Part shown: positions 3,649-57,432 of the stretch, in pieces
How positions within the stretch are numbered: position 1 is the first letter of the stretch
How the letters are laid out: every line of letters starts with the position of its first letter
DNA from: Alphaproteobacteria bacterium
GTDB taxonomy: Bacteria > Pseudomonadota > Alphaproteobacteria > UBA11073
Assembly: GCA_965246945.1 (NCBI GenBank)
Contig: CBDFFW010000001.1
Location: 1,064,311-1,128,310 of the forward strand
Length of the DNA: 64,000 nt
Reading direction: 5' to 3'
Notes under the pieces: generated by a model
The model's input: the letters and a program-made list of their open reading frames with translations, nothing else
Databases searched by the model: none
What the model was told of the DNA's origin: nothing
Position numbers and translations under genes: made by a program

Positions 3649-4881
3649 ATGTTCAAACGCACATTTGCGGCCATCGCTTTGGCTGCCACAGTTTTTCATG
3701 CATTACCTGCCAATGCGGGTGATCCATTTGATATCACCTTAACTGATACCACTTCGGGTGAGACGCGCAATTTTCATTTTAATAATGCTGAAGACGCGGT
3801 GAATACCTTTTCCAATACAAAATTGAGTCAATATCTCAGCACCTATAGCCCAACCCATGGGGTTACGGCTGCGGTAAGTTTACGGGGTTTGCCAGGCACT
3901 TTATCTTATGCGGCCGGTTCCAATACGCTGGTTTTAAATATTCCCAGCATCGGTCTCACCCAAAATTTCGTGGGCACTGGCGGGACGACAGCGGCCGCCC
4001 GTAATAATGCGCAAGACCAACTGGAAAATTTCTTTAAAGGGCAAAACGGCAGTGCGGTGCTGACCCAAATTTTAAGGGCACTGGCAGCCAAAACGCCGAT
4101 CGATCCAGTGGCAGGTAACCCCAATAGCCAATTATCATTGATGGGTGACCGTGATTTTAAATTGGGTACCAATTATTTGGAAGGTTTTAATTATAGCGCC
4201 AATAAAGATGATCGTAACCACTTTGAAACGGATGTCAGTGGCGGCCGGTTTAGCAATGATGTATCAGATCAAACCGTTATTACTGCCGCGCTGAACTATA
4301 ACCGCCGTTTGACCGATTCAAACGTGTCCCTGATTTTTGATCTGCCGTTTACTTATTCAGATAGTGAAGGGGCAAGCAGTTATGCGGCCTCATTTGGGAC
4401 AGGCGTGCGTGTGCCAATTATGCCAAACTGGGCGGTAACGCCATTGGTGCGGGTGGCCGGTGTTGGATCTGAAGATTTGGGCGCGGCAGCGGTTATTTAT
4501 TCAGGGTCGGTGACTAGTGATTTCCGCGTGCCGTTGGATAACAACAATGATTTCCAGTTAGGGAATATGATTGGTTATTATAAAACCAATGGTATTACCG
4601 TCGGCGATTACCATATTGATTACGATTTGGGCAATACCCGTTTGAAAAACGGCGTGGCCTTGGCCCACCGCTTTACGCCGGATAAAAATGCGTTAACGGG
4701 CCGGGTATTCTTTAACGATAGCCGTTTCTATGGTGATGATTTGTTTAATGATTATTACGAAGAAGTGGGCGTGTCTTTGTTGCAGCCATATACAGTAAGG
4801 ACGGGTCTAGAGCTAACCGGTTCTTATCTGTTTGCGGATAATTATAATGGTTGGCGCTTAAGCCTTGATTACAATTTCTGA
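3649..4881 (+). CDS. Outer-membrane beta-barrel protein, function unknown
   Basis: Signal peptide MFKRTFAAIALAATVFHALPANA. The composition is rich in Asn, Thr, Gly and Tyr with alternating hydrophobic residues. The C-terminus ...SLDYNF ends in Phe, the usual barrel signature. Confidence 0.5.
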   Translation: MFKRTFAAIALAATVFHALPANAGDPFDITLTDTTSGETRNFHFNNAEDAVNTFSNTKLSQYLSTYSPTHGVTAAVSLRGLPGTLSYAAGSNTLVLNIPSIGLTQNFVGTGGTTAAARNNAQDQLENFFKGQNGSAVLTQILRALAAKTPIDPVAGNPNSQLSLMGDRDFKLGTNYLEGFNYSANKDDRNHFETDVSGGRFSNDVSDQTVITAALNYNRRLTDSNVSLIFDLPFTYSDSEGASSYAASFGTGVRVPIMPNWAVTPLVRVAGVGSEDLGAAAVIYSGSVTSDFRVPLDNNNDFQLGNMIGYYKTNGITVGDYHIDYDLGNTRLKNGVALAHRFTPDKNALTGRVFFNDSRFYGDDLFNDYYEEVGVSLLQPYTVRTGLELTGSYLFADNYNGWRLSLDYNF

Positions 4882-15295: not shown

Positions 15296-15410
15296 GAGTA
15301 GCGAGGCGAAGGCCGAGCGGATCGCAGATCCGGAATCTAGGAGTTAATATGTGCGAAGCTTTGCTTCGCGCTTTGTTTAGTCACTAGATCCCGACTTTCG
15401 TCGGGATGAC
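15282..15410. repeat. Family B palindromic element, copy B2
   Basis: The left arm is the long variant (GTCATTCCGGACAAGAG...GATCCGGAATC). The right arm is the short variant (CACTAGATCCCGACTTTCGTCGGGATGAC). It sits between cmk and rpsA. Confidence 0.85.
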
Positions 15411-35293: not shown

Positions 35294-35418
35294 GTCATCC
35301 CGACGAAAGTCGGGATCTAGTGGTATAATCTGCGCGAAGCGCTCAAAATTATTATTTTGCATTACGCTAAAGCATAATACTTTTTAATCACTGGATTCCG
35401 ACTTTCGTTGGGATGACG
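35294..35418. repeat. Family B palindromic element, copy B5
   Basis: GTCATCCCGACGAAAGTCGGGATCTAGTG ... CACTGGATTCCGACTTTCGTTGGGATGACG. Confidence 0.85.
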
Positions 35419-39497: not shown

Positions 39498-40313
39498 ATG
39501 AAAAAGACCGCCCTTATCACCGGCAGTGCCAAACGAATTGGTGCGGTAATTGCGCAGCATTTGGCGGCCGCTGGTTATGATATTGTTATTCATTATCACC
39601 GCAGTGTTGTTGAAGCTAAGCAGTTGGCAGACCAATTAACCACACAATATCGGGTTAAAGCTTCAACAGTTGCCGCTGACCTAGCCAATTTGGTGCAAGT
39701 TGAAAATTTATGGCAGCAGATAATTGCGCAAGCAGGCCAAATTGATTTGCTGATAAATAATGCGGCCTGGTTCGATCCTGCCAATGATCCAGTTGAACAT
39801 AGCGATCCGCAAATTACTAAAACAGTCTGGCAAATTAATACGCATACACCGCAGCGTTTAAGTGAATTATTTGCCGCGCAAAACGGTTTAACAAATGGCC
39901 ATATCATTAATATTTTGGATTATCGGGTCTTGAAACCCAGTGGGAGCTTTCCAATTTATACCGCTAGCAAAACTGCTTTATGGCAAGTTACTCAGCAGCT
40001 TGCATTGGATTACGCGCCAACTGTTCGCGTAAATGCGTTGGCATTAGGCATGGCGATGCGGGCCAATGACCAAACGCAAGAACATTTTGAAAAGCATATT
40101 ATGGCAGCACCTTTGCAACGCAGCGGCGATGCGGATGAAATTGCCTGTGCTGTTTTAGCGTTAGAAAATCTATCGAGTGTGACCGGACAAATTTTGGCTT
40201 TGGACGGCGGTATGCATTTAACCAACGTCATCCCGACGAAAGTCGGGATCCAGTGGCCAACAGTACAATGCGAAGCTTTGTTCAAAAAATTAATTTTATT
40301 TGCATCACGCTAA
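39498..40313 (+). CDS. SDR-family oxidoreductase (pteridine/monapterin reductase-like); the last ~30 codons come from repeat B6
   Basis: TGSAKRIGAVIA cofactor motif and catalytic Y..K in ...YTASKTAL.... The SDR fold ends near ...ALDGGMHL. The remaining tail (…TNVIPTKVGIQWPTVQCEALFKKLILFASR) is encoded by the repeat. Confidence 0.7.
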   Translation: MKKTALITGSAKRIGAVIAQHLAAAGYDIVIHYHRSVVEAKQLADQLTTQYRVKASTVAADLANLVQVENLWQQIIAQAGQIDLLINNAAWFDPANDPVEHSDPQITKTVWQINTHTPQRLSELFAAQNGLTNGHIINILDYRVLKPSGSFPIYTASKTALWQVTQQLALDYAPTVRVNALALGMAMRANDQTQEHFEKHIMAAPLQRSGDADEIACAVLALENLSSVTGQILALDGGMHLTNVIPTKVGIQWPTVQCEALFKKLILFASR

Positions 40314-40360
40314 AGCGTGACAATTATAATCACTGGATCCCGACTTTCGTCGGGATGACG
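40227..40360. repeat. Family B palindromic element, copy B6, overlapping the 3' ends of two convergent CDS
   Basis: GTCATCCCGACGAAAGTCGGGATCCAGTG ... CACTGGATCCCGACTTTCGTCGGGATGACG. Read on either strand the arm encodes VIPTKVGIQ. Confidence 0.85.
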
Positions 40361-43233: not shown

Positions 43234-43242
43234 TTAGCGCCG

Positions 43243-43372
43243 TCATTCCGACGAAAGTCGGAATCCAGTGGTTGATAAGTGCAATGCATCGCATTGCTCA
43301 AACAATAATTATTTTGTGTCATGCTGCGCATGACGAGTCTGGGTCACTGGATCCCGATTTGCATCGGGATGA
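43243..43372. repeat. Family B palindromic element, copy B7
   Basis: GTCATTCCGACGAAAGTCGGAATCCAGTG ... central GTCATGCTGCGCATGAC ... CACTGGATCCCGATTTGCATCGGGATGACG. Confidence 0.85.
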
Positions 43373-45739
43373 CGATTCTGTTTCAATCAAATGTGCTAGG
43401 AAATCAGCAGGACGTTTGTTGGAATCTTGCGCCATCCATTGGTGATAGATAACGGTGGATGGCGTGAGACCTGGCAAAGTATTGGCTTCGATCAGCAGCG
43501 CTTGATCGGTTTTGATGTTAAAGAAAATATCGAGACGGGCGTAGTTTTGGATGCCGAGTGTCGCAGCCGCCTTTTCGATTTTGCTTTCAATTATTGTCCG
43601 TTGCGCGGCGCTGATGATACTGACCGGCGGCGGCGTTAAATTCACGCCTGTCCCACCTTGGAATTTTTCTTCCAAGCTTAAGACCGCATTGGCCGCCACC
43701 GTGATACTTGGCGGCAGGGATTGATATATACCGTTTTGCTCCAGAACACCAACGGTCAATTCAATCCAGCCAGTGTGGGCTTCATGTTTTAATTCTGTAC
43801 CGACAATTTGCAGGTGATCGGTTTCAATGTAAGGTTCTAAAATATACTTACTGCTGTGTGCGCTGGCGAGTTCGACAATTTCTGGTTGTTCGGCAAAACT
43901 ATGCGGCGGAAAAAAGCTGGCACCTGCACGCAGGAATTTGCCGTAAATGGCAAGTTGGACAGCATCGCTGAGTTTAATCACGCCAGCCGAACAGCCTTCA
44001 TCTTGTGGTTTTAGGATCAATTTTTGGGACTGCCAATTGGTGGTTAATTCCTGCCACAAGTCAACCCAATCGGTGCTGGCATTTTCCAGATCCGCTTGGC
44101 TTAGATGATGTTTGGGGCAGGCAGTTAACTGTTTATCGCGCAGGGCATCAATCGCAGCGCCGGTTGCGAGTTTATCCATGCATAATGCCGAAGCCGCTGA
44201 ACCCGAACCGTTATAATGCAGACCGCGCCCATCAAGCTCTGCCTGCAACCGGCCATCTTCACCCATGCCGCCATGCAAGCCTAAAAAGACAAAGGCATTT
44301 TGTGCTGCCGCTTTCTGTAAGAAGTTTTCTAATGATAAAGATTGCGGTTCGGCTAATGCGGCTTGCTGTTCGATTTCACTATAGCCAAGCGCCGGTAAAA
44401 TTTGTGGTAGATACGGCTTCAAACTGGCCGTGATACTGGCGCTATCGGCACAGCTGTGCATAATTTCTTCAACCGTGTGTTGCAGGGCATAAGCATAGGG
44501 CAATTGCCAGATGGTTTGCGCATCGGTGCCAAGTAGAAATAGCTGCGGTGAACAATTTGCCGTCTGTTGCAATTTCAGCCAAACATTGGTCCCGCTCATC
44601 AATGAAACTTGCCGCTCGGCCGTGCTGCCGCCACAAATTACGGCGACCAGCTCTGTGCCATTACGCGGTTGGGCCGGCGGTAAGACAACGCCATGCCGCT
44701 GGGCCGCACTGTTTAGAACATGGCGTAAAACCTGGCGGTGGGTGAGGCCGATGCGGGCGGCTTGTTGGAATAAAAAGCTGTTCTGTTCCATTCCGCTAAT
44801 CGGGTTTAAATCAGAAAATAAAACGGTGCCGTCTTTTAACCACCAGCCATCCAAGCGCGCAAAATCCTGCATGCCGAATAATTTAAAAATCTGCGCTGCC
44901 TGCTGGCGGATGGTGTTAATCACATTGGTAGGAAAACGCGGCGGGCAGAAATAAGCGGCTTGGTTGGTGGGTAGATATTTGCGGCGAAAATCGAAGATTT
45001 GATTGTCTTGGTAACTAACTGCGATTTCGCTGGGTAGCAATGCAACGGGTTCGCCGTCTGTGCCGGTTAGCACAACAATAGTAAATTCCTGGCCATCACA
45101 AAATGGTTCAATCATCACACGGCTATCATGCGTCTGGGCGAGCAGTTTATCGGCCGCAGCAGTGGCGGCTTCAGCGCTAGCCACCGAATGCACGCCAATG
45201 CTGCTGCCACCGGCCACGGGTTTAACGACAGCGCGCTGCAAATTATGTGTGCGCCAAAAAACGGGAATGGCCGTGCTTTCTTCCGCTTGGCTGACGGTGA
45301 GACTGGGCAGCGTGGCCAGGCCATTGGCCCGCAATATACTGGCCGCAACATCTTTGAAAAACATTTGGCGGCAGGCGGCGGCTGGGCTGGCAACATATGG
45401 AATATCATGCTGCTCTAAAAAATTCTGGAGCTGACCATCTTCGCCGTAAGCGCCATGAATGGCGGGGAAAACCAGATGGCAAGCTTGCAGTGCTTCAACC
45501 ACCTGTTTTTCATTCAAAACCTGTGCGGTTTCGGCGAGTTTGAAATCGAAATCAGAAGGCGTGTTTGAATAAAGTTGGGTGGTGGAAAGCCGATAAAATT
45601 TCAGTTTCTCATCCACATAAAATGGCACAATTTCGATATTGCTATCGGCGATATGATCAAGCAGGGAACGAGCAGAATTAAGGGAAATACCCCGCTCGGC
45701 CGATGGCCCGCCACAAATCACTGCAAGTTGAAATGACAT
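43319..45739 (-). CDS. Tandem fusion of two D-alanine--D-alanine ligase-like ATP-grasp modules (806 aa)
   Basis: Two N-terminal Ddl-type motifs (LAVICGGPSAERGISLNSA and VAVICGGSTAERQVSLMSG), each followed by an ATP-grasp region. The last ~17 codons (…ESSSRCKSGSSDPDSSCAA) lie inside repeat B7. Confidence 0.65.
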   Translation of the reverse strand: MSFQLAVICGGPSAERGISLNSARSLLDHIADSNIEIVPFYVDEKLKFYRLSTTQLYSNTPSDFDFKLAETAQVLNEKQVVEALQACHLVFPAIHGAYGEDGQLQNFLEQHDIPYVASPAAACRQMFFKDVAASILRANGLATLPSLTVSQAEESTAIPVFWRTHNLQRAVVKPVAGGSSIGVHSVASAEAATAAADKLLAQTHDSRVMIEPFCDGQEFTIVVLTGTDGEPVALLPSEIAVSYQDNQIFDFRRKYLPTNQAAYFCPPRFPTNVINTIRQQAAQIFKLFGMQDFARLDGWWLKDGTVLFSDLNPISGMEQNSFLFQQAARIGLTHRQVLRHVLNSAAQRHGVVLPPAQPRNGTELVAVICGGSTAERQVSLMSGTNVWLKLQQTANCSPQLFLLGTDAQTIWQLPYAYALQHTVEEIMHSCADSASITASLKPYLPQILPALGYSEIEQQAALAEPQSLSLENFLQKAAAQNAFVFLGLHGGMGEDGRLQAELDGRGLHYNGSGSAASALCMDKLATGAAIDALRDKQLTACPKHHLSQADLENASTDWVDLWQELTTNWQSQKLILKPQDEGCSAGVIKLSDAVQLAIYGKFLRAGASFFPPHSFAEQPEIVELASAHSSKYILEPYIETDHLQIVGTELKHEAHTGWIELTVGVLEQNGIYQSLPPSITVAANAVLSLEEKFQGGTGVNLTPPPVSIISAAQRTIIESKIEKAAATLGIQNYARLDIFFNIKTDQALLIEANTLPGLTPSTVIYHQWMAQDSNKRPADFLAHLIETESSSRCKSGSSDPDSSCAA

Positions 45740-45783: not shown

Positions 45784-45910
45784 GTCATCCCGACGGAAGT
45801 CGGGATCTAGTGATAAATTAATGAATCATGCTGGCATGATACAAAATTATTCTTTTTTGAGCGCTACGCGCAGTTTTAGTCACTGGATCCCGACTTTCGT
45901 CGGGATGACG
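45784..45910. repeat. Family B palindromic element, copy B8
   Basis: GTCATCCCGACGGAAGTCGGGATCTAGTG ... central ATCATGCTGGCATGAT ... CACTGGATCCCGACTTTCGTCGGGATGACG. Confidence 0.85.
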
Positions 45911-46592: not shown

Positions 46593-46651
46593 CTATAAAT
46601 AACTTAACCAAATCGCTTGTCCGCATCTAGTATAAATGCTTAGACAGCCAG

Positions 46652-47683
46652 ATGAGTTTCATTCGCCTATTGGCATTTCTGTTGGTGATTGCATTGGGGA
46701 CACAGGCCCAGGCCCATGACACATTGCAACCAATTGCAGCCCAACCGGATGACCATGCCCCCATCGGCGTGATGGGCGACCATACCCATGCCAAAGGCAG
46801 TTGGATGCTATCCTATAGTTACGATTGGCAGCATATAACTGGGCTGCGTGCTGGCACTAGCCGTGAGAGTACCGATGATGTGTTTGCGCAAGGGTATATG
46901 ATGGCCCCCACTAAAATGGATATGCAAATGCATATGCTGGGTTTGATGTATGGCGTAACCAAGCGGACAAGCTTAATGTTAATGGCCCCCTATAATATCA
47001 ATGATATGGATGAGGTCGATAATATGGGCACCCGCAGCAGCATGCATAGCGAAGGCTGGGGCGATCTGCAGCTGACCAGTTTGACCAATATCTGGATGCG
47101 GCATAATCCCAGTACCGGCCGCAGCGATCATATAAATGTTAATTTGGGTCTCAGCATACCCACCGGTTCGATTGATAAGCGGGATACGATGATGGGTTTG
47201 CCCAACCAAAAACTGCCATATATGATGCAATTGGGTTCCGGCACTTGGGACCCGAAATTTGGGATTACTTATTCTCGCCAATACCAAAAATGGTCGCTGG
47301 GGTTGCAAGGTAATGCGACCATGCGGGTGGGGCAGAATGATCAGGGATACCGGCGCGGCAATGAATATGATGCCAGTTTCTGGCTGGCCCGTAATTTAAA
47401 CCGTTATTTTTCCGGTTCACTGCGTTTGAATGGTAAGCGGTGGGATAATATTCATGGGTCAGATAATGAATTAATGCCAATGATGGATCCCACCAATCAG
47501 GCTAATTTGCAGGCAGGTGAACGGGTTGATGCTTTAATCGGGATTAATCTTTTAAAACCAAATGGGTGGGGGGCGCGCAATCGTTTAGGCGTTGAATTTG
47601 GCGTGCCGGTTTATCAACGGCTGGATGGCCCGCAATTGGAAACCGATTACCGATTAACGGCCGGTTGGCAATATAGCTTTTAA
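46652..47683 (+). CDS. Met/His-rich outer-membrane beta-barrel protein (CopB-like or MetA-pathway transporter-like), tentative
   Basis: Signal peptide MSFIRLLAFLLVIALGTQAQA. Met/His-rich segments (DHAPIGVMGDHTHAKG, MDMQMHMLGLMYG). C-terminal ...WQYSF. Confidence 0.45.
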   Translation: MSFIRLLAFLLVIALGTQAQAHDTLQPIAAQPDDHAPIGVMGDHTHAKGSWMLSYSYDWQHITGLRAGTSRESTDDVFAQGYMMAPTKMDMQMHMLGLMYGVTKRTSLMLMAPYNINDMDEVDNMGTRSSMHSEGWGDLQLTSLTNIWMRHNPSTGRSDHINVNLGLSIPTGSIDKRDTMMGLPNQKLPYMMQLGSGTWDPKFGITYSRQYQKWSLGLQGNATMRVGQNDQGYRRGNEYDASFWLARNLNRYFSGSLRLNGKRWDNIHGSDNELMPMMDPTNQANLQAGERVDALIGINLLKPNGWGARNRLGVEFGVPVYQRLDGPQLETDYRLTAGWQYSF

Positions 47684-47722
47684 AGTTTTGGCTATAATGC
47701 CTGACATGCCGTAAATAGCCTT

Positions 47723-49624
47723 ATGCCCGCTGACCAAACAGCAGAACAACCACCTAATGACAGCGATACTGGCGCTGTACAATTGCCACGTGAAAAGGCG
47801 ATTAATCTTAATGTAAAAGATGTGGTGAAAGCGGGTTTAATGAACCGCTTCATCATGGATCCGGCCATGGCTGCGGCGGGTATTATAGTGCCTGGTGGCT
47901 GGATTGCGATGACTTTGTTGGATTTATTTTTAATCCATCCGCTAACCGGCCGTTCGCATCACAGTTTAAACTATATCAAAGCCAGTTTACCGCGTGAATG
48001 TGCCACATTTATGCGGGCGGTGTTGATCCGTGATGATCACGACGCTTTGCGCAGTGCCATTGATACACAGCAAGTAGCCGCTGGTCCCGAGCAAGGGAAT
48101 TTAAATATTTTAAACGCCAAAGGCTATGCCCTGTTGCAGTTAGAAAATCAAGAATTGAAAGACCCACAAACGGGGCCGATGCATTGCATTTTGGCAGAAA
48201 TGCTACGCTTTCAGACCGAAAGCAAAATGACACTGAATGATGCCAGCTTGGAAGATAGCCGTAATCCTTTAAGCGTGAATGGCAAGGTTTCACGGGCGCA
48301 GCAAGTTGCCGCTGACGCAATTGAGGCGTTAACCAAAACCCAGGAAGGCAAAAGTTTTTTATGGCAGGCCGACCGTATTGCCGGTGCCAAAGTATTGCCG
48401 GAAGAATTGATGCAAGCGCTTAATAATTATGCCGTAACAACAGCGGCTAAACGGCACAGCCAAGTTGCGATATTTGACCAGCCAGATGGCACTGACATGA
48501 TTATGCCGCAAACCCAAGGTATTGGCTCGCCATATAAAACGGATGTTTATACAATCCATACATTACCTGATGGCCAGCGAATTGGTTACCGCGTTAGAAA
48601 CGGGGAATATGAAATCAAATCTCTCACGGCATTATATGATCAGTTGCGCCAGGAAACAGCTGGGCGTGAACCGGTTATATTCAGACCAAACCGGTTTTAT
48701 ACCGCGCTTTTAAATCCCAATGACAATGGTTGGCGAACTGCGTTAAAAGCTGCCGGAATAGTGGGGGGAGAAGTGATACCAACTGCAATTACGCCTAAAA
48801 ACATTGTGCCTGCATCATCCAATATTTCTCTCGCAACACTTTTTGGCGTACCAGCCGATAAAGTAGTGCCGGCCAATATTTTTGGCATTGTATCGTCAAA
48901 GAATGTAGCTAGTGAGCCAGCGGTTGAAATACCGAAAGTTAATGTAGTTGTAAAACCCATAACCGTAACGGTTTTTGCCACGCCTGGCTGCCCGTTTATC
49001 GAAAATATTGTGGGGCCAATTCTGCGCTTGCTCAATCAAAAATTAAGTGAACAGCAGTCTCCTAATAAAATTCAAGTAACCGTAATTGGCACCGATGCCG
49101 ATGCCAGTAAATTACGCAAAACAATTGCCGGCAATGTGATGGTTAATGCGGGTAGTGCCAGTTTGCTAAAGCCATATAATATCCGTTATTCATGTGATTA
49201 TGTTATCGCTAGTCCAAATCAAGCGCCGCAGGTTAGAAAAGGCTGGTCGCAAGGTTATGTCTTAGAATTAGCCGATAAAATGGGTTTATACGCTGATGTT
49301 AAAGATAAAGACGAACGCATCAAATTGTTTAAAAACGACATCCGCAAAAATAAAGACGCGTATGATGCCTATATTGCACTTCCTAAAATTGGCGAACATT
49401 CTATTGAGGGCTGCGAGTTTATGCTGCACCGCACAACACAAATTGTGCCGCCTGCAGCCTCAATTAATGGTAACCCTATCGTATTCTTAAACGCCCAATC
49501 GCTAATTCGCTATCAACTTGCCGGCCGCACCAATAATTTTGCAGTAGCCACAAATTTGAAAACCGAAAATTTAGCCAATAGCTTGCTAGCTGATAATATA
49601 GCAAATGTTGTATTTAAATCGTGA
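47723..49624 (+). CDS. Large hypothetical protein (633 aa), no recognisable domains
   Basis: No signal peptide, one hydrophobic segment near the N-terminus and no enzymatic motifs. Coding DNA is moderately AT-rich. Confidence 0.5.
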   Translation: MPADQTAEQPPNDSDTGAVQLPREKAINLNVKDVVKAGLMNRFIMDPAMAAAGIIVPGGWIAMTLLDLFLIHPLTGRSHHSLNYIKASLPRECATFMRAVLIRDDHDALRSAIDTQQVAAGPEQGNLNILNAKGYALLQLENQELKDPQTGPMHCILAEMLRFQTESKMTLNDASLEDSRNPLSVNGKVSRAQQVAADAIEALTKTQEGKSFLWQADRIAGAKVLPEELMQALNNYAVTTAAKRHSQVAIFDQPDGTDMIMPQTQGIGSPYKTDVYTIHTLPDGQRIGYRVRNGEYEIKSLTALYDQLRQETAGREPVIFRPNRFYTALLNPNDNGWRTALKAAGIVGGEVIPTAITPKNIVPASSNISLATLFGVPADKVVPANIFGIVSSKNVASEPAVEIPKVNVVVKPITVTVFATPGCPFIENIVGPILRLLNQKLSEQQSPNKIQVTVIGTDADASKLRKTIAGNVMVNAGSASLLKPYNIRYSCDYVIASPNQAPQVRKGWSQGYVLELADKMGLYADVKDKDERIKLFKNDIRKNKDAYDAYIALPKIGEHSIEGCEFMLHRTTQIVPPAASINGNPIVFLNAQSLIRYQLAGRTNNFAVATNLKTENLANSLLADNIANVVFKS

Positions 49625-49744
49625 TCCTAATATAGCTTTAAACATTATTCATTTTTACTGGTTTAATTTAAAATATAACAGATGTTTCATGTGCCGCCGA
49701 TAATTTTACTTTATGTTATTGTAATGTCATTATAATGGTGACTG

Positions 49745-50404
49745 ATGCGCCTATTACTGGTTGAAGACGATGCTATGTTGGGCAAATCGCTGAAGCGTGG
49801 TTTAGTGCAGGCTGGGCATGCCGTTGAATGGGTGCAAGATGGTGAAAATGCTTTGGCTGCCATTATTGCCAATGATTTTGATTTAATTATCTTGGATATG
49901 AATTTACCAAAAATTTCTGGGATTGAAGTTCTGACGCAGCTTAGAAGTGGTGATAAAACCAATCAGCCAGTGTTGATGCTTACTGCCATGGATAGCACAG
50001 AATATAAAATTAAAGGTTTAGATGCTGGCGCTGATGATTATTTAACCAAGCCATTTGACTTTGAAGAATTGCTGGCCCGCATTCGGGCACTGACCCGCCG
50101 TGTACAGGACCGGCAGGATGCTGTATTACGCTGTCAGGATATTGAGCTAAACCCGCAGGCCAAAACGCTGACCAAGGCCGGCGAAGTAATCATTTTAACC
50201 GCTAAAGAACTTACGGTTTGCAATCTATTGATGGAGCGGCGCAATCGCATCGTCAGCAAAACGCAGATTGAAGAAGCCCTATATGGCTGGGATGATGATG
50301 TGGATAGCAATACGGTAGAAGTTGCTGTTTACAATTTACGCAAAAAACTGGGTAAGGATTTCATTCAAACCTTACGCGGTATTGGTTATATGGTGCGGGC
50401 ATGA
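49745..50404 (+). CDS. OmpR-family response regulator
   Basis: Receiver domain (LLVEDD..., DLIILDMNLP, phospho-acceptor Asp) plus a winged-helix C-terminus (…VEVAVYNLRKKLG…LRGIGYMV). Confidence 0.85.
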   Translation: MRLLLVEDDAMLGKSLKRGLVQAGHAVEWVQDGENALAAIIANDFDLIILDMNLPKISGIEVLTQLRSGDKTNQPVLMLTAMDSTEYKIKGLDAGADDYLTKPFDFEELLARIRALTRRVQDRQDAVLRCQDIELNPQAKTLTKAGEVIILTAKELTVCNLLMERRNRIVSKTQIEEALYGWDDDVDSNTVEVAVYNLRKKLGKDFIQTLRGIGYMVRA

Positions 50405-51762
50405 AACCATTATCACTTACTCTGAGATTATTTTTTAGCCTAACCTTTTTAATTCTCATTACTTTATTGTTGGTTGCCTTGCTTGGGCTGCGCAGTGCCA
50501 ATAAAGAAATCACCGAAGATTATGACGCGCAGTTGATTACCGAAAGCCAGGTTTTATGGCAAATTACCCAAGAAGATTTGGGCGAAGGTGTTTTTAAAGA
50601 ATATAATATTGAAGACAGCCTGGTCGCATTAGATCCAAGTTATCAACAAGAATTATCGCAATATGCCCAGTGGCGCGGTTTCCGCATTTGGAAGAATGGT
50701 AAGGTTATTCTGCAGTCTGATAATACCGATGATATGCTTTCAGAACCGGCGACTGTTGGCTTTCATAATTTTACAGTAAACAATGATCGCTGGCGCGTAT
50801 TTGCCCTGCATGCACCGGATGATGTGATTGTTGAAAGTTTTGAAAATCTGAAAAATCGTGAAATTTTGCAGCATGATATTCTGTTAGGTATCGTTGATCC
50901 ATCTTTATGGATGTTACCTATTTTGGGTTTATTATTATTTTTCGGTATTCGCTATGGCCTACGTAAATTACGTGATTTAGCCAGCACCTTGGATGGTCGC
51001 TCGCCAACCGATTTATCGCGCCTACCGGTGCAAAAGATTGCCACTGAATTAATGCCATTGGTCAATGCAGTGAATGGTTTACTCAATAAACTAGAAGCAT
51101 CATTGGCGCGGGAGCGTGAATTTACCGATCATGCGGCGCACGAATTACGGACACCGTTAACGACTTTAAAACTACAAACCCAGCTGATTACGAAAAATTT
51201 TAAAGCAGCAGACCGTACGCCAGTTGATGAATTATTAGCCAGTGTCGACCGCACCACGCGCCTGGTTGATCAATTATTATTACTGGCACGCTTATCTCAA
51301 CAACCCACTAACCTTGCCCCGGTTAATTTATTTGAAGAAGTTCACTTGGTAATTGCGCTTTATGCAACCCGCGCTTTGGATAAAAAAATTACATTTTCCT
51401 TAACAGGTGATGACAATTTGTATATTAATACGCAAGTAGAATTGCTCCACATTATGATTGGGACATTGTTGGACAATGCCATTAAATATACGCCTATCTC
51501 TGGCGAAATTAATATTCGCATAGAAAATCAAAATACCAAACCCAGTTTAATTATTCAGGATACTGGCCCCGGTATTGCTGAAATTGACCAAGCGCAAGTT
51601 TTTAACCGCTTTTACCGCGGCAATGGATTGGCCGAACCAGGTAGCGGTTTGGGTTTAGCGATTGCCCAGCAAATTGCTGAATTGCATCAAGCCAGCATTC
51701 ATTTAACCAATATGGTTAACGCAACCGGTTTGATGGTAAGGGTTATCTTTCAAAACAAATGA
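50401..51762 (+). CDS. Sensor histidine kinase (PmrB/QseC-like), cognate to the preceding regulator
   Basis: Overlaps the regulator by 4 nt. Two TM segments, then HAMP, H-box AAHELRTPL, N-box LLDNAIKYT and G-boxes DTGPGI and GSGLGLAIA. Confidence 0.8.
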   Translation: MKPLSLTLRLFFSLTFLILITLLLVALLGLRSANKEITEDYDAQLITESQVLWQITQEDLGEGVFKEYNIEDSLVALDPSYQQELSQYAQWRGFRIWKNGKVILQSDNTDDMLSEPATVGFHNFTVNNDRWRVFALHAPDDVIVESFENLKNREILQHDILLGIVDPSLWMLPILGLLLFFGIRYGLRKLRDLASTLDGRSPTDLSRLPVQKIATELMPLVNAVNGLLNKLEASLAREREFTDHAAHELRTPLTTLKLQTQLITKNFKAADRTPVDELLASVDRTTRLVDQLLLLARLSQQPTNLAPVNLFEEVHLVIALYATRALDKKITFSLTGDDNLYINTQVELLHIMIGTLLDNAIKYTPISGEINIRIENQNTKPSLIIQDTGPGIAEIDQAQVFNRFYRGNGLAEPGSGLGLAIAQQIAELHQASIHLTNMVNATGLMVRVIFQNK

Positions 51763-51806
51763 TCATACCATCATTTTCGCATCAGATAACGCTCAGTTTT
51801 CCATCA

Positions 51807-51851
51807 GCCAGGCCCATTAGTACTTCAGCCAGATGGCCTGGCACATTTTTT
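51807..51851 (+). promoter_or_regulatory. GC-rich stem-loop with a T-run that overlaps the start codon of the next gene
   Basis: GCCAGGCC-(20 nt loop)-GGCCTGGC followed by ACATTTTTTG. The ATG of the HAD gene (51833) lies inside the 3' arm. It could be the histidine-kinase terminator or a structure that occludes the start codon. Confidence 0.4.
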
Positions 51852-52537
51852 GTGATTTTGATAATACGATAAGTCTAGCTGATTGTACGGATGTTATTCT
51901 AGAAGCTTATGCCGCTTCTGAATGGCATGATATTGAGACAGAATGGGAAGCCGGTAAGATTGGCTCACGCGAATGTATGCAGCAACAGATTGCTTTGCTG
52001 CAGGCCACACCTTTTCAAATGGATCAGTTAATCGATCAAATCGAAATTGATCCGTATTTCATTCGCTTTGTCGAATATTGTGAAGCCAAGAAATTACCGC
52101 TAACCATTGTCAGCGATGGTTTGGATTATGTGATCCAGCGAATTCTCGCACGCTATCAGCTCGGTCATTTACCGGTTATTGCAGGCAATTTTAGTCAACG
52201 AAACAACCAATGGCAGCTCGCCACCCCTTATGCAGTGCCAACTTGTGCAGCACGGGCAGTGACGTGTAAATGTCAGGTAGTGCAACAATGTCAGCGTGCG
52301 CAGCAAATTATTTATATTGGTGACGGTCGTTCTGATTTTTGTGTGAGCAGCCAAAAAGCGGATGTTGTGTTGGCTAAAAGATCGTTACTGACCCATTGCC
52401 AAACCAATCAATTACGGCATTTTGCCTTCGAAAATTTTGCCGATGTGCAAGCCATTATTACCCAACTCACCGCGCAGTCACCGATGCGTGTTGTTATCCC
52501 CCCATCTATGGAGAAATCACATGCAAACTGTGCTTAA
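51833..52537 (+). CDS. HAD-IB family hydrolase (PSPase/MtnX-like phosphatase)
   Basis: Motif I FCDFDNTIS at the N-terminus. Motif III/IV region (…IYIGDGRSDF…). Confidence 0.65.
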   Translation: MAWHIFCDFDNTISLADCTDVILEAYAASEWHDIETEWEAGKIGSRECMQQQIALLQATPFQMDQLIDQIEIDPYFIRFVEYCEAKKLPLTIVSDGLDYVIQRILARYQLGHLPVIAGNFSQRNNQWQLATPYAVPTCAARAVTCKCQVVQQCQRAQQIIYIGDGRSDFCVSSQKADVVLAKRSLLTHCQTNQLRHFAFENFADVQAIITQLTAQSPMRVVIPPSMEKSHANCA

Positions 52538-53945
52538 TAAAGTTATCTCACTGCCATCTCGGACCAATGACGCGTATTCCGAAACAGAATTACGGGCAAT
52601 GGAAGCACAATATTGTTCGTTCGGCGATACCGTTCATTATTTGCCAGAACCTAAAATTTTTACCAATTGTGAAGGTTCATTTTTATATGATGCCCAGCAA
52701 ACACCATTTCTCGATCTGCAAATGTGGTATTCAGCCGTTAATTTCGGTTACCGCAATCCGCGCTTAAATAATATTGTGCATGATCAATTAGAAACGCTGC
52801 CCCAGGTAGCATCACAATATTTGCACCGGCAGAAGATTGAACTTGCGGCGATGATTGCGCGCGATGCCGAAACCAAATTTGGCGCTAAAGGCCGTGTACA
52901 TTTCAACGTGGGTGGTTCGCAGGCAATCGAAGATTCTTTAAAATTGGTACGAAATTATAGCGGTGGTAAAAGCCTTATGTTTGCCTTTGAAGGCGGCTAT
53001 CACGGCCGCACGCTGGGTGCCTCGGCGATCACTTCCAGCTATCGTTACCGCCGCCGTTATGGGCATTTTGGTGACCGTGCCCATTTTATCCCATTTCCCT
53101 ATAGCTTCCGCGCCCCGCGCCATATGAGCAAAGAAGAATATGGCGAAGAATGCGTAAAGAATTTCGCGCGTTTATTCGAAACCGAGTATCATGGGGTTTG
53201 GGATCCAAAAGCCGGTAAATGCGAATATGCCGCATTTTATGTGGAACCATTACAAGGCACGGGTGGCTATATCGTGCCGCCGATGAATTTCTTCAAAGGC
53301 CTTAAAAAGGTTCTGGATCAATATGGTATCTTAATGGTGGTTGATGAAATTCAAATGGGTGTTTACCGTACCGGCAAATTATGGTCGATCGAACATTTTG
53401 GGGTCACCCCGGATGTGCTGGTTTTTGGGAAAGCCATCACCAACGGCCTTAATCCGCTATCTGGTGTGTGGGCGAAAGAAGAAATAATTAATCCAACCAT
53501 TTTCCCGCCAGGTTCAACCCATTCCACCTTCGCCAGCAACCCCATGGGCACCAGCGTGGCCTTGGAAGTGCTGAAGATGGTAAGCGAAGATGATTATGAA
53601 ACCATGGTCATGGCCAAAGGTGCTTACTTTTTACAAGGCCTGCAGGAATTACAGCGTGAGTTCAAAATTATTGGTGATGTGGATGGTCTAGGCTTGGCCT
53701 TACGCCTGGAAATCTGCGCCGAAGATGGTTTCACGCCCGATAAAGCGATGATGGATAAAATTAATGAAGAAGCGATGCTGGGTAATTTAATGGTCGGCCA
53801 GCAAAATTATGGTTTGGTTTTGGATGTTGGCGGTTACTACAAAAACGTGATTACCTTCGCGCCATCCTTGCATATCAGCTATGCGGAAATTGATTTATCG
53901 ATCGAATTATTAAGGCAGTTGCTGGTCCGTGCCACTCGGAAATAA
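52521..53945 (+). CDS. Class III (omega-type) PLP-dependent aminotransferase
   Basis: GGSQAIEDSLKL, AFEGGYHGRTLGA, VDEIQMGVYRTGK and the PLP lysine in VFGKAITNGL. The start was chosen at the Met preceded by GGAGAA (52510-52515). The longest ORF begins at 52422. Confidence 0.8.
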   Translation: MQTVLNKVISLPSRTNDAYSETELRAMEAQYCSFGDTVHYLPEPKIFTNCEGSFLYDAQQTPFLDLQMWYSAVNFGYRNPRLNNIVHDQLETLPQVASQYLHRQKIELAAMIARDAETKFGAKGRVHFNVGGSQAIEDSLKLVRNYSGGKSLMFAFEGGYHGRTLGASAITSSYRYRRRYGHFGDRAHFIPFPYSFRAPRHMSKEEYGEECVKNFARLFETEYHGVWDPKAGKCEYAAFYVEPLQGTGGYIVPPMNFFKGLKKVLDQYGILMVVDEIQMGVYRTGKLWSIEHFGVTPDVLVFGKAITNGLNPLSGVWAKEEIINPTIFPPGSTHSTFASNPMGTSVALEVLKMVSEDDYETMVMAKGAYFLQGLQELQREFKIIGDVDGLGLALRLEICAEDGFTPDKAMMDKINEEAMLGNLMVGQQNYGLVLDVGGYYKNVITFAPSLHISYAEIDLSIELLRQLLVRATRK

Positions 53946-53956
53946 GAGATATCGTT

Positions 53957-54466
53957 ATGGAAGAAATTGATGTGCCAGTTGAGCATTTAAGTGAAGAGAT
54001 CCATCATAAGGCCGCGCACGCCAAAATTGGCTGGATGACTTTGGCGGCCTTGTTATCAACTTTGCTAGCCGTATTGGCCGCAATTACGGGTTTGCAATCC
54101 GGGCATTATGCCAATCAAGCGATGCGCCTGCAAATTGCCGCTTCTGATGATTGGGGCTATTACCAGGCAAAAGGCATTAAAGCAGCGATTGCAGAACTAG
54201 CCCCAAAATCTGCCATTCAGGAAACAAAGCTAAAAAAATATGAGGATGAACAAGCGGCCATTAAAGCGGACGCCGAAAGCAAAAACCGGCAGTCTGAACA
54301 GTATTTAGAGCGCCATGAAATTGTCGCCCGGGCGGTTACGATGGCGCAAATAGCCATCGCCATGATTGCCATTGCAGTGCTGATGAAACGACCATATTTT
54401 TTATGGCTATCGGCAATTTTGGGATTAATCGGTTTATACTTTTTTGTACAAAGTGCGCTTGGTTAA
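53957..54466 (+). CDS. DUF4337-like membrane protein
   Basis: 169 aa. A TM segment, a charged coiled region and a C-terminal TM pair. The family call is tentative. Confidence 0.4.
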   Translation: MEEIDVPVEHLSEEIHHKAAHAKIGWMTLAALLSTLLAVLAAITGLQSGHYANQAMRLQIAASDDWGYYQAKGIKAAIAELAPKSAIQETKLKKYEDEQAAIKADAESKNRQSEQYLERHEIVARAVTMAQIAIAMIAIAVLMKRPYFLWLSAILGLIGLYFFVQSALG

Positions 54467-54469
54467 TAG

Positions 54470-55420
54470 ATGCAGCCGTATTTACTCCACCTCGATGATG
54501 CGTTTGAAAAGCAAAACCTGTTTGTGCAGCAGATTGCTCGGCTGGCTGGGCAGCAGATCAATGCACGGAAGCAAGCCAGACTAATACGTTTATGGGGCAA
54601 TGCGAATGCCTTACAAAAATTAAAAGCATATCTGCGTGAACAACTATATAACCCAGCCAATCAGCAGCCCAAATTAATATTTATGGGTTCTGGCGATTTT
54701 CACCATGTCAGTGCTTTGCTGATCGAGTTATTAGCAGAAACAACCACTGAACCTTTTACCATTATTCATTTTGATCGTCATCCAGATTGGGTAAAATTCA
54801 ACAATGGTATGCATTGCGGTTCATGGGCGCAGCATATCCTTAAACACAAACAGGTTACCCGGGTAATCACCATCGGGGCTGGGGGAAAAGACTTTTCTCA
54901 ACCTGAAAAAGCAGGGGCAGCACTTGATTTTATCGCCGACGAAAAGCTAATCGTGCTACCATGGGAGCCAACCATCAGCCTGGTGAAAAAGCAATATAAC
55001 TGGGGGGCAGGGCACAAGCAATTTGGGAGACAAATAATTTGGGAAGCAGTTAACATGATGGCACCCAATGTGCTGGCTGATTTTTTAATCAGGCAAATAC
55101 CCACTCGGCATATTTATATGACAATTGATAAGGATGTCTTGCCAGCCGCCGATGCTGCGACCAATTGGGACCAAGGCGGTATGCCACTTGCACATTTAAT
55201 CCAAGTTGTTCAGTCTTTGCAGAAAAATAGTATTTTAATTGGTGTGGATGTTATCGGCGATTACAGCAAGCCACGTTACGGCGGTAGTTGGTTTAGCCAA
55301 ATCGCCAAATGGTTTGAAGCGCGTTTGGATCAATCTTGGCAACCGCCAAAAAAAATCAGCGATATTAATACGGCCAGCAATTTGCGCCTGTTGGAATGTT
55401 TCATGGAAGCAGCGACATGA
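54470..55420 (+). CDS. Arginase/deacetylase-fold metallohydrolase (ureohydrolase-like), divergent
   Basis: Metal-ligand-like motifs in the expected order: GSGDFHHVS, HFDRHPDW, TIDKDVLPAADAATNWDQGGM and DVIGDYS. Confidence 0.55.
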   Translation: MQPYLLHLDDAFEKQNLFVQQIARLAGQQINARKQARLIRLWGNANALQKLKAYLREQLYNPANQQPKLIFMGSGDFHHVSALLIELLAETTTEPFTIIHFDRHPDWVKFNNGMHCGSWAQHILKHKQVTRVITIGAGGKDFSQPEKAGAALDFIADEKLIVLPWEPTISLVKKQYNWGAGHKQFGRQIIWEAVNMMAPNVLADFLIRQIPTRHIYMTIDKDVLPAADAATNWDQGGMPLAHLIQVVQSLQKNSILIGVDVIGDYSKPRYGGSWFSQIAKWFEARLDQSWQPPKKISDINTASNLRLLECFMEAAT

Positions 55421-55737
55421 CTTATACGCTTATCTTCCTTTGCGTTCTGCTCGTCATCATGCGGGAGCTTTGTTTCAAACAAGGTGCTAGCCAGTCGCGT
55501 TATCAATGGCTTGTTGGTTGCGGTATAACATTATGGATCATTGAAATTTTGCTCTGGGCACGCGTTTTGCAACTGATACCACTATCTATCGCTTTCCCAT
55601 TTATGAGTTTGTGCTATGTGGGTATTCCCTTATGCAGCAATTGGCTGTTATGTGAACCAATTGGTAAAAAGCAGTGGTATGGCATTGGCCTAATCAGTTT
55701 TGGTGTCACATGTATTGGCCTAAGTGGTCTAGGTTAA
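55417..55737 (+). CDS. Small EamA/DMT half-transporter (ArnE/ArnF-like), copy 1
   Basis: About 106 aa with four TM segments. C-terminal …PLSIAFPFMSLCYVGIPLCSNWLLCEPI…WYGIGLISFGV… matches the EamA/SMR-like pattern. Its ATGA overlaps the upstream gene. Confidence 0.45.
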   Translation: MTYTLIFLCVLLVIMRELCFKQGASQSRYQWLVGCGITLWIIEILLWARVLQLIPLSIAFPFMSLCYVGIPLCSNWLLCEPIGKKQWYGIGLISFGVTCIGLSGLG

Positions 55738-55748
55738 GGAGAAATAAC

Positions 55749-56645
55749 ATGAGTAAAAGTAAACCAACTAAAATTTTCGCTTATTCAGCATGGGACATTG
55801 TACCTGTGCTGGCTGGCATCGTTCATTTGGCTTTTGTCGTGGGTCTATATTTTGTGTATCCAATTGCGCCATGGTGGTTACTGATCATTTGGGGTGCGCT
55901 TTATGCGGTTAGTATTTCTTGGAGTATTAACAGCGTTTCGCATAATTTTTTGCATAATCCCTATTTCACTTCCAAAATGCTGAACCGTATTTTCAGTTTG
56001 ATTTTGTCACTCGCCAACGGTTTCTCGCAATGTTTTTACACCTGGGTGCATTTACGGCATCACCGCGGTAACAGCGATAAACCCAATGAAAATGGCGAAA
56101 CGATTGATTGGTTATCCATTTACCGGCACGGCAAAAATGGCAAGGCCGAACATGTTTTAAGCTACACATTCTTGGGGTTTTTTCGTGAAATGTTCAGCAA
56201 TGAAGGCGCAGAATTATATGCCAAATTGAAAAAGCGCAATCCAGCCGATGCCCGTTTTGGCAGTTTTGAATATGGCACTTTTATTGGGCTGGTTTTAATT
56301 GCGGCAGTCTTCAATTGGCATGCGGTGCTATTCATGGTGCCATGGTATTATTTGGGTAATTGCCTATCTTCCCTCAACGGTTACTACCGGCATTATGGCG
56401 CTGATCCGGATACGCCCATTGCCTGGGGGGTAAGCACCTATGCTAAATTTTATAACTGGTTATGGTTCAATAATGGTTACCACGCTGAACATCATTACCG
56501 CCCACGCACGCATTGGACCAAAATCCAAGAATTGCATGAACAAATTAAAGAAAAACAAGCCGCCGCCGGTGTGCGGGTTATTAAAAACTGCCATGCCTTA
56601 GGATTTTTGGAAGCCGATAAAGGAATTATCCATGAAGGATCTTAG
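55749..56645 (+). CDS. Membrane fatty-acid desaturase family protein
   Basis: Three histidine boxes, HNFLHN, HLRHHRGN and HAEHHYRP, on a polytopic membrane protein. RBS AAGGAG at 55736-55741. Confidence 0.65.
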   Translation: MSKSKPTKIFAYSAWDIVPVLAGIVHLAFVVGLYFVYPIAPWWLLIIWGALYAVSISWSINSVSHNFLHNPYFTSKMLNRIFSLILSLANGFSQCFYTWVHLRHHRGNSDKPNENGETIDWLSIYRHGKNGKAEHVLSYTFLGFFREMFSNEGAELYAKLKKRNPADARFGSFEYGTFIGLVLIAAVFNWHAVLFMVPWYYLGNCLSSLNGYYRHYGADPDTPIAWGVSTYAKFYNWLWFNNGYHAEHHYRPRTHWTKIQELHEQIKEKQAAAGVRVIKNCHALGFLEADKGIIHEGS

Positions 56646-57432
56646 TTTTTATTTGCCAGGCACCAATGGCAAAGCAGTTTTACTGATCCATGGTTTAACT
56701 GGTGCGCCAGCTGAAATGCGGCCAGTGGGCCGTATTTTAAACCGCAAAGGTTATACGGTATACGCACCACTATTGGCTGGCCATGGGTTGGATGAAAAAA
56801 CGCTGGTTAAAACGTGCTGGGAAGATTGGCTTGCTGGGTTGGTGCCCGCGATAGATCGCCTAACTGCTGAAACCGACCACGTTTATGCTGCAGGTATTTG
56901 CGTGGGCGGCAAATTGGCCATGATGCTAGCACATACTCGGCCCCGCAGTTTGCGTGCAACGGCCATCTATTCCGCGTGCTTTAACTATGATGGTTGGGAT
57001 ACGCCAAGTTACTATAAATTGGCACCTTTCGTGCCTTTATGGGTCACAAAATTACCGCTTATTCGAAATTTAAGCTTTGCAGAAACGGGTAGTATGGGTA
57101 TTAAAAGCGAACGTTTGCGCCGTTGGATGTCTATGCAATCAAGTGAAGGGGTGTTGGATAAGTTTCCGGCTTTGGCATTGGCAGAAATGTTTCGGCTCGG
57201 CCATGCATTAAAAAAGGCACTACCAAACATGCAAACGCCCAACCTTATTCTGCATGCGCGCGAGGACGATCTTAGTAATATTCGCAATGCAGAATATATT
57301 AATCAGCATATCGCTGCGCCGCACGAAATGCATGTGCTAGAAAATAGCTATCACATGATTCATGTTGATCAGGAATATGGTAAAACTGCTGATTTAACCG
57401 ATCAATTTTTCAGTCGCTATGCTAATGCCTGA
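56632..57432 (+). CDS. Alpha/beta-hydrolase with a Cys nucleophile elbow (dienelactone-hydrolase-like)
   Basis: HGLTGAP and HG boxes. The nucleophile elbow is G-I-C-V-G-G (Cys in place of Ser). Candidate acid (REDD) and His (SYHMIHVD) follow. Confidence 0.6.
   Translation: MKDLSFYLPGTNGKAVLLIHGLTGAPAEMRPVGRILNRKGYTVYAPLLAGHGLDEKTLVKTCWEDWLAGLVPAIDRLTAETDHVYAAGICVGGKLAMMLAHTRPRSLRATAIYSACFNYDGWDTPSYYKLAPFVPLWVTKLPLIRNLSFAETGSMGIKSERLRRWMSMQSSEGVLDKFPALALAEMFRLGHALKKALPNMQTPNLILHAREDDLSNIRNAEYINQHIAAPHEMHVLENSYHMIHVDQEYGKTADLTDQFFSRYANA

Follow-up and report, generated by a model that had tools for sequence, protein, structure and literature searches.

We analysed four same-strand genes at positions 46,652 to 51,762 of a 64,000-nucleotide (nt) stretch of an alphaproteobacterial contig (the window). 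They encode an outer-membrane protein (OMP), a protein of 633 residues, and a response regulator with its sensor kinase. The most interesting result lies at the family level: the OMP belongs to a widespread clade of barrels with conserved methionine (Met) and histidine (His) motifs, and this clade is associated with copper-sensing leader peptides. The clade probably consists of outer-membrane channels related to copper; we observe the association here and infer transport. A preliminary description of the interval had treated the OMP, the 633-residue protein and the two-component system as one metal- or envelope-stress-responsive unit. Our open reading frame (ORF) call on the window returned the same four genes with identical boundaries. 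We nevertheless favour, with slightly less than even confidence, an interval made of three separable things, the OMP, the 633-residue protein and the two-component pair, over one system.

A clade of outer-membrane barrels with Met/His motifs

The OMP starts with a Sec-type signal, read from the translation as MSFIRLLAFLLVIALGTQAQA followed by HD at the mature N-terminus, and ends in GWQYSF, an aromatic terminus as in outer-membrane barrels that is conserved among its homologs. Its 24 Met residues make up 7.0% of the sequence, the highest share among the 44 window ORFs of at least 200 residues (mean 2.37%, runner-up 4.1%). His is not enriched overall (2.9% vs 2.75%) and is grouped with Met (HAPIGVMGDHTH; MDMQMHM), in clusters that are invariant or nearly so over 27 diverse homologs. 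In the alignment of these 27 members, drawn from many phyla, M52, M89, M93, H94, M95, M99, Y100, M111, M119 and M192 are invariant, and P37, G39, V40, M41, H44, H46, M60, M62, M83, M91 and M109 are conserved in at least 90%. The consensus motifs of the family are HAPIGVMGDHxH, which precedes the first conserved barrel segment, and FMVAPxxMxMxMHMFGxMYG. Since the Met/His clusters are the most conserved features of the alignment, they define a clade and do not reflect an accident of composition. The clusters that the preliminary description had picked out in the OMP are real.

Comparison with Pfam placed the OMP in PF13557 (Phenol_MetA_deg, the same family as COG4313) with 40.7 bits against a cut-off of 22 (E 3.8e-10, residues 125-253). 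At E <= 0.01 there was no match to PF05275 (CopB/PcoB), and the only match besides PF13557 was a sub-threshold one to OMP_b-brl. Homologs of the OMP number more than 3,342 at about 40-52% identity; they are mostly unnamed or labelled "transporter", and most carry a precomputed PF13557 match. A scan of species-representative genomes gave at least 589 confirmed family matches among those listed. The family is found in Alpha- and Gammaproteobacteria, Cyanobacteria, Bacteroidota, Gemmatimonadota, Nitrospirota, Planctomycetota and Verrucomicrobiota, among other phyla. One family member (P0084, 469 residues, from a cluster of six sequences) carries an N-terminal NosL domain (PF05573) fused to the barrel; NosL is the copper chaperone for nitrous-oxide reductase.

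The OMP passes the gathering score of the COG4313/PF13557 channels (Pput2725, for which a structure has been solved, TcpY and SphA) and resembles them in size (about 320 mature residues), in its Sec signal and in its aromatic C-terminal residue. Pput2725 is a 12-stranded barrel in which about 14 residues preceding strand 1 fold into the lumen (PMC4493636). The OMP likewise has a conserved segment ahead of its first strand, and by analogy with the lumen plug of Pput2725 (PMC4493636) the HAPIGVMGDHxH segment is a candidate for a lumen-inserted metal-binding plug. In contrast to these channels, the OMP is covered by the Pfam match in its central third alone, and a profile of the OMP clade found no sequence match among solved structures, Pput2725 included. 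Placing the OMP on a solved COG4313 barrel by sequence was tried and gave no match. The invariant Met/His motifs of the OMP subfamily are not reported for characterised COG4313 members (PMC4493636), and the genomic partner of the subfamily is a copper-type leader ORF and not a set of catabolic genes.

The preliminary description had likened the OMP to CopB/PcoB-type copper proteins. They share an outer-membrane barrel, Met/His-rich motifs and the suspected ligand, copper, but no sequence relationship to PF05275 is detectable (Pfam, E <= 0.01). The Met/His motifs of CopB/PcoB are located in a disordered N-terminal extension, whereas those of the OMP sit in a short pre-barrel segment and in conserved barrel segments. 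An operon with a CopA/PcoA-type oxidase and a CopRS/PcoRS system is likewise lacking: the scanned flanking genes (about 42-58 kb) contain no multicopper oxidase, and the two-component system misses the heavy-metal cut-offs. Membership of the CopB/PcoB family has to be given up, while a link to copper stays plausible from the motifs and from the leaders described below; a copper role of the OMP rests on better grounds than the resemblance to CopB.

To describe the genomic context of the family, we called ORFs in 80 retrieved OMP loci and clustered the 515 neighbours lying within four genes of the OMP. These fell into 422 clusters, a very heterogeneous context. A Pfam census of 120 further neighbours revealed no recurrent family, and same-strand genes downstream were heterogeneous too. 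The gene directly upstream on the same strand was often a small ORF of 100-170 residues that combined an export signal with a CxxC-type motif and had RAPP or RSPP at its C-terminus. The commonest family at this position was DUF2946, matched in 6 of 31 upstream neighbours at sub-threshold Pfam scores (best E 7.3e-6). In a strict scan, which required a small exported ORF carrying a Cys motif and an R[AGS]PP tail at the C-terminus, such a gene lay directly upstream in 17 of 72 OMP loci, compared with 0 on the reverse strand and 3 downstream. Under a relaxed definition (an export-signal-like segment, PP in the last 14 residues, and at least two Cys or at least four His) the count rose to 26 of 72, against controls of 0/72 and 0/70. 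The association between the OMP family and copper-sensing leader ORFs of the CutF/CruR type is significant. As the other neighbours are heterogeneous, the leader ORF is the sole consistent partner of the family.

Two leaders of this type have been characterised. CruR (DUF2946) of Bordetella pertussis senses copper through a CXXC motif, and its RAPP arrest motif controls a downstream TonB-dependent transporter (PMC9426467). CutF (DUF2946) of Rhodobacter capsulatus senses periplasmic copper while it is being exported, and translation of the multicopper oxidase CutO is under its control (PMC9973294). According to these two surveys, DUF2946-type leaders mostly head copper-homeostasis genes, with some clusters looking Ni/Co-related; their main text does not name PF13557 barrels as downstream partners (PMC9426467, PMC9973294). 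Our literature search found no paper tying PF13557 barrels to copper. The OMP family shares the cruR-bfrG and cutF-cutO architecture, in that it stands directly behind a Cys-motif, RAPP-type exported ORF in 24-36% of the other genomes. It differs in the gene that is led, which is a BfrG/OprC-type TonB-dependent importer or the CutO oxidase in the CruR and CutF cases and a small barrel of the 12-strand class here. The window copy also differs from these operons in having no leader at all: a scan of the upstream 1 kb found no CutF/CruR-type ORF, as just 59 bp separate the OMP gene from the divergent radC. Thus, the OMP of the window is not copper-controlled by the CutF/CruR route.

Other copper-related genes near the OMP family were multicopper oxidases at three neighbour positions, one Sco protein and one cupredoxin. 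The RegB/RegA two-component system (ActS/PrrB-ActR/PrrA) recurs beside the OMP in at least seven gammaproteobacterial loci, from metagenome-assembled genomes; it is divergent from the OMP in L019, L024, L029, L052, L060 and L017 and downstream of it in L080. This is a redox system, of a family different from the two-component system of the window. In Rhodobacter, RegB/RegA adjoins the Sco homolog SenC/PrrC, and these neighbours would be a further indirect link to the copper supply of cytochrome oxidase. Cultured carriers of the OMP family among the retrieved loci are Kordiimonas (in which the leader is present), Ruegeria, Spectribacter and Sulfuriflexus.

The 633-residue protein and its pairing with the OMP

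Searches of Pfam, NCBIfam, PADLOC and PHROGs gave no match to the 633-residue protein, and a signal peptide is absent from its N-terminus, in agreement with the preliminary description. The start of the protein is set by an in-frame TGA at 47702-47704, 18 nt upstream, and by a conserved MPAD N-terminus in the homolog from locus L001. Homologs on two other contigs, at 35-61% identity, establish that the ORF is a real gene. The family is very small. An exhaustive HMMER search of 1.84 billion cluster representatives, standing for about 15 billion proteins, returned three members: the protein itself, the L001 homolog (P0124 and P0002) and P0123 from locus L082. Scanning JGI metagenomes for the motifs ATP[KG]CPFI and KGWSQ gave no further member, nor did a local profile search of all ORFs of the 80 OMP loci and the window add a relative to these three. 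P0125 was considered as a distant relative and rejected, being a cadherin-repeat protein that matches over a stretch of 27 residues only. The designation of this protein as the novel component of the interval is therefore upheld.

Structure prediction, which had been proposed for this ORF, revealed a C-terminal thioredoxin-like domain, while residues 320-410 and a short hydrophobic stretch had values of the predicted local distance difference test (pLDDT) below 50. The model supports a thioredoxin fold of the TlpA/ResA/Sco type. An invariant Cys423, in the motif ATPGCPFI, lies at the N-terminus of helix alpha-1, and a second invariant residue, Cys564, is in GCEF. The motif is monothiol (C423-P-F-I; CPFINYC in P0123 and CPFIDF in L001), and the domain has neither the CxxC active-site motif of TlpA/ResA nor the CxxxC plus His of Sco. 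No match to Pfam Redoxin, AhpC-TSA, Thioredoxin or SCO1-SenC was found at E <= 1 in the C-terminal half of the protein or its homologs, and a profile search of the Protein Data Bank with the family returned nothing meaningful. The window copy is without a GRYP segment before strand beta-3. The N-terminal two thirds of the protein resemble nothing known. Compared with TlpA, ResA, CcmG (DsbE) and Sco, which are membrane-anchored periplasmic proteins, the 633-residue protein has no signal peptide or conserved transmembrane anchor, carries CPFI in place of CxxC or CxxxC, and has a 410-residue N-terminal extension with no recognisable fold. The hydrophobic stretch makes membrane association possible. 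Its Kyte-Doolittle maximum over 19 residues is 1.89 in the window copy, 1.08 in P0123 and 1.27 in the L001 homolog; this hydropathy is not conserved, and a conserved transmembrane anchor is unsupported.

In L001, an OMP homolog (76% identical) is followed by the 633-residue homolog after a 40-nt spacer that aligns with the 39 nt of the window, and the junction between the two genes is 86% identical to that of the window. The 633-residue protein has diverged faster than the OMP between these two genomes (about 52-61% vs 76% identity). Neither spacer contains a terminator-like site, and the structure z-scores are 0.62 and -0.20. Because the spacer is short, conserved, and free of terminator-like sites and significant structure, the OMP and 633-residue genes are probably co-transcribed. 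The pair in L001 is followed by ackA-pta on the opposite strand, with no two-component system. The remaining homolog, P0123, stands alone in L082 between a HEPN/nucleotidyltransferase pair and a serpin gene, and no relative of the 633-residue protein was found in any other OMP locus. The pairing is confined to two close relatives and could reflect either a functional link or simple synteny.

Two observations concern the loci themselves. L001 is a metagenome contig of 7,082 bp at low coverage (2x) with apparent frameshifts in at least three genes, namely those for the 633-residue homolog, a short-chain dehydrogenase and an Nramp transporter. Frameshifts in this many genes of a low-coverage contig indicate that the split of the 633-residue homolog is probably a sequencing artefact and does not mark a pseudogene. 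In L082, the gene directly beside that of P0123 (11762-12985, minus strand) belongs to the serpin family (PF00079), members of which are uncommon in bacteria.

The two-component pair and the surrounding locus

The domains of the two-component system are as the preliminary description had them, an OmpR-family regulator with a PmrB-type kinase. Response_reg and Trans_reg_C in the regulator and HisKA and HATPase_c in the kinase all score above their Pfam cut-offs. The best NCBIfam models are PmrA (209.9, cut-off 330) and QseB (206.2, cut-off 345) for the regulator, ahead of cztR_silR_copR (195.3, cut-off 279.2), and QseC (229.4, cut-off 475) and PmrB (168.4, cut-off 314) for the kinase, ahead of cztS_silS_copS (151.5, cut-off 292.55). 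Both proteins thus stay under the cut-offs of the heavy-metal CopRS/CusRS/CzcRS models (TIGR01386, TIGR01387). The pair resembles QseBC and PmrAB (BasRS) in combining an OmpR-family regulator with a kinase that has two transmembrane segments and a periplasmic loop, and in the overlap of the two genes (here 4 nt, ATGA). Unlike those systems, it scores far under the equivalog cut-offs (regulator 210 vs 330; kinase 229 vs 475), and the PmrA-box-like repeats of PmrAB systems were not found in the window. The host being a deep alphaproteobacterium, orthology with the enterobacterial QseBC/PmrAB systems is unlikely. The periplasmic loop of the kinase starts and ends with ExxE motifs of low information content (EITE, about residues 36-39; ESFE, about 146-149); PmrB carries Fe(III)-binding ExxE motifs.

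A search for regulatory sites gave no link between the regulator and the upstream genes. The cop/cus boxes, which had been proposed as a check upstream of the OMP gene, had no match there or anywhere in the window with the patterns used (TGACAA-N2-TTGTCA; T[GT]ACA-N5-7-TGTAA). No match to the patterns for PmrA- or CueR-like boxes was found in the window either, and the upstream regions have no motif in common. An Rfam scan of the region returned no riboswitch or leader RNA match, and the spacers have no significant structure. The 120-nt spacer between the 633-residue gene and the regulator gene contains a promoter-like site at 49675-49704 (9/12 matches), although such sites are no commoner in number than expected by chance (20 vs 17.3 +/- 3.9). 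It has no significant structure (z 1.64) and no terminator-like site, so read-through from the 633-residue gene into the regulator gene may occur. In 76 other OMP loci, kinases of the QseC/PmrB type and close relatives of the regulator were both absent; the sole match was an OmpR-family regulator in L033, which is 25% identical and lies four genes away from the OMP.

Directly after the kinase gene is a same-strand cluster (51833-58543, plus strand) with genes for an MtnX-like HAD phosphatase, a class-III aminotransferase, a DUF4337 protein, an arginase-family protein, a fatty-acid desaturase, an alpha/beta hydrolase and a FemAB-like/GNAT protein. This may be an amino-lipid or envelope-modification cluster, and it is a candidate target of the two-component pair at least as plausible as the OMP and 633-residue genes. 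The HAD gene and the OMP gene share an identical start context, CAGCCAG-ATG (at 51823-51835 and 46642-46654, respectively), with no obvious Shine-Dalgarno sequence.

The host was characterised from the proteins of the window. All window proteins tested are singletons at the 90% identity level, and the contig that encodes them measures 1.79 Mb. For Lon, the closest named relatives (61-63% identity) are from Rhodospirillales and Sphingomonadales. As judged from these sequence comparisons, the host is an alphaproteobacterium that branches deeply and has a small genome. A first idea, prompted by the PmrA-like regulator and the orphan protein, was a Legionella-type reading in which the 633-residue protein would be a Dot/Icm effector in a PmrA regulon. 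This was rejected on the alphaproteobacterial affinity of Lon and the absence of PmrA-box-like repeats from the window. The GC content at third codon positions (GC3) steps down at the boundary between the OMP and the 633-residue gene, from 0.50-0.61 in genes through the OMP to 0.37-0.47 from the 633-residue ORF to the end of the window (about 47700-64000). The step is too ambiguous to mark the 633-residue gene as foreign, and this reading was rejected: low GC3 is also seen in the housekeeping genes ackA and pta of L001, where the OMP gene is the GC3-rich one. The coordinates of the features are collected in Table 1.

Table 1 Features of the interval and its parts, in window coordinates
Feature	Position	Strand	Remarks
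Divergent intergenic region, 59 bp	46593..46651	.	Between radC (minus strand) and the OMP gene
OMP gene, 343 residues	46652..47683	+	Barrel of the PF13557 (COG4313) Met/His-motif subfamily; putative copper conduit
OMP Sec signal peptide, predicted	46652..46714	+	Residues 1-21, cleavage after AQA; N-termini of homologs similarly hydrophobic
OMP N-terminal motif HAPIGVMGDHTH	46754..46789	+	Residues 35-46, just ahead of the first conserved barrel segment
OMP Met ladder MDMQMHMLGLMYG	46916..46954	+	Residues 89-101; M89, M93, H94, M95, M99 and Y100 invariant
Spacer between OMP and 633-residue genes, 39 nt	47684..47722	+	No terminator-like site or significant structure
633-residue protein gene	47723..49624	+	Lineage-restricted; residues 1-335 conserved, then variable linker and C-terminal thioredoxin fold (predicted)
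Hydrophobic stretch of 633-residue protein	47864..47944	+	Residues about 48-74, around conserved MPGGW; pLDDT <50
Variable linker of 633-residue protein	48728..48952	+	Residues 336-410; Pro-rich in both relatives; pLDDT <50 over 320-410
C-terminal thioredoxin-fold domain of 633-residue protein, predicted	48953..49432	+	Residues about 411-570
Spacer before regulator gene, 120 nt	49625..49744	+	AT-rich; promoter-like hexamers; no terminator-like site
OmpR-family response regulator gene, 219 residues	49745..50404	+	PmrA/QseB-like; under all equivalog cut-offs
Sensor histidine kinase gene, 453 residues	50401..51762	+	QseC/PmrB-like; periplasmic loop of about 130 residues; not a CopS/CusS ortholog

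Several further observations were made in the window. A palindromic element of about 125 nt is repeated at 45784-45909, 35294-35417, 40227-40359 and 43242-43373, with a single arm at 15387-15410. It has inverted arms of 24-31 nt (GTCATCCCGACGAAAGTCGGGATC) with a nested hairpin in each arm; the arms gave 9 matches against 0 expected by chance, all of them intergenic or at gene ends, and the element resembles a REP/MITE-like repeat family. The copy that lies immediately downstream of radC has a full-length, both-strand, sub-threshold match to Rfam WsnRNA46 (Wolbachia sRNA 46; 36.6 bits vs a gathering score of 65.3). Two ORFs have no Pfam family, one of 410 residues (3649-4881, plus strand) and one of 726 residues (16179-18359, minus strand); the latter has a GC3 of 0.285, compared with about 0.4-0.6 in its neighbours, and is a candidate for a foreign or fast-evolving gene. 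A protein of 806 residues (43319-45739, minus strand) contains two tandem D-Ala-D-Ala ligase units, with Dala_Dala_lig_N and Dala_Dala_lig_C matched twice each, and is an unusual fused double Ddl.

Alternative readings and implications

The proposal that the regulator controls both upstream genes, so that the OMP, the 633-residue protein and the two-component system would form one metal- or envelope-stress-responsive unit, now appears improbable. The layout speaks for it, with four genes on one strand, gaps of 39 and 120 nt and no terminator-like site between them, as do the PmrB/QseC-like character of the kinase and, at low information content, the two ExxE motifs in its periplasmic loop. PmrAB-type systems classically respond to metal and envelope signals. 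However, comparative support is missing, since the adjacency is not conserved in L001, L082 or the 76 OMP loci, and the OMP family elsewhere is solitary or forms a leader-plus-OMP pair. Nor is there a motif link: kinase and regulator both miss the heavy-metal cut-offs, none of the boxes searched for is present in the window, and the cluster running from the HAD phosphatase to the FemAB-like gene offers an alternative target directly downstream. A less remote alternative, though still an unlikely one, is that the 633-residue protein has no functional relation to the OMP and evolves fast as a lineage-specific protein, for instance a secreted or membrane-inserting effector, of an alphaproteobacterium with a small genome and possibly a host association. 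Its near-orphan status and rapid divergence would fit, as would the lack of a Sec signal, the short bipartite hydrophobic stretch around MPGGW, the solitary position of P0123 between a toxin-antitoxin pair and a serpin gene, the 1.79 Mb contig of a deep lineage, and the presence of other large domain-less ORFs in the window. Against it, the data examined contain no sign of a secretion system or of host association, the conserved thioredoxin-fold domain with its two invariant Cys suggests an enzymatic or redox role, and the short spacer to the OMP gene, conserved in two genomes, suggests co-expression.

The copper reading of the OMP itself has to be weighed against an ordinary COG4313 channel of the TcpY, SphA and Pput2725 kind, which would carry hydrophobic or aromatic molecules and whose Met richness would have nothing to do with metals; we consider this unlikely. 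Grouping of the OMP with barrels of the MetA pathway had been named as a result that would refute a metal role, and the PF13557 threshold is indeed passed. Two points weigh against copper. The COG4313 members with an assigned function are all implicated in the uptake of hydrophobic compounds (PMC4493636), and Met is a hydrophobic residue, so that a ladder on one face of a strand could face lipid or a greasy lumen. But lipid-facing positions normally vary, and these Met and His residues are invariant across phyla. The Pfam match is restricted to residues 125-253 and the clade profile misses Pput2725, so that the clade is a distant one. Genes of aromatic or lipid catabolism do not recur near the family, and its one recurrent partner is the copper-type leader ORF. 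A PF13557 match is therefore too blunt a measure for setting copper aside: the grouping holds, and the conserved motifs with the copper-type leaders keep the copper link.

In the reading that we prefer, three separable components on one strand, the OMP is a Sec-exported barrel of a PF13557-fold subfamily defined by HAPIGVMGDHxH and the Met ladder MxMxMHMxGxMYG, and may serve as a passive outer-membrane copper conduit with Cu(I)-type Met/His ligands along its path. The 633-residue protein may have an accessory role in handling thiols or metal, a suggestion that we make with little confidence. The two-component pair is generic. Its position by the OMP and 633-residue genes is not conserved, and it is more likely to stand beside them by synteny than by function.

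Copper passage across the Gram-negative outer membrane is still poorly defined, the candidates being TonB-dependent receptors of the OprC/NosA/BfrG type and general porins. A very widespread Met/His barrel with copper-sensing leaders in many genomes would be a concrete, testable candidate for this step. We tentatively suggest that the PF13557 Met/His-motif clade, whose members number more than 3,000 and come from many phyla, is a general outer-membrane copper channel that had gone unrecognised, under CutF/CruR-type control in about one third of cases and accompanied here by a dedicated monothiol thioredoxin-fold partner. A path lined by Met and His would lead Cu(I) through a small barrel of the 12-strand class, and in about one third of genomes synthesis of the OMP would be set by a CutF/CruR-type copper-sensing arrest peptide. 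The importance of the 633-residue protein is narrower, and its value hinges on whether it actually works with the OMP. For annotation, a label that makes one copper or envelope-stress operon of all four genes should be avoided. If the copper channel is true, the default "phenol/MetA-pathway transporter" label of thousands of genes would change.

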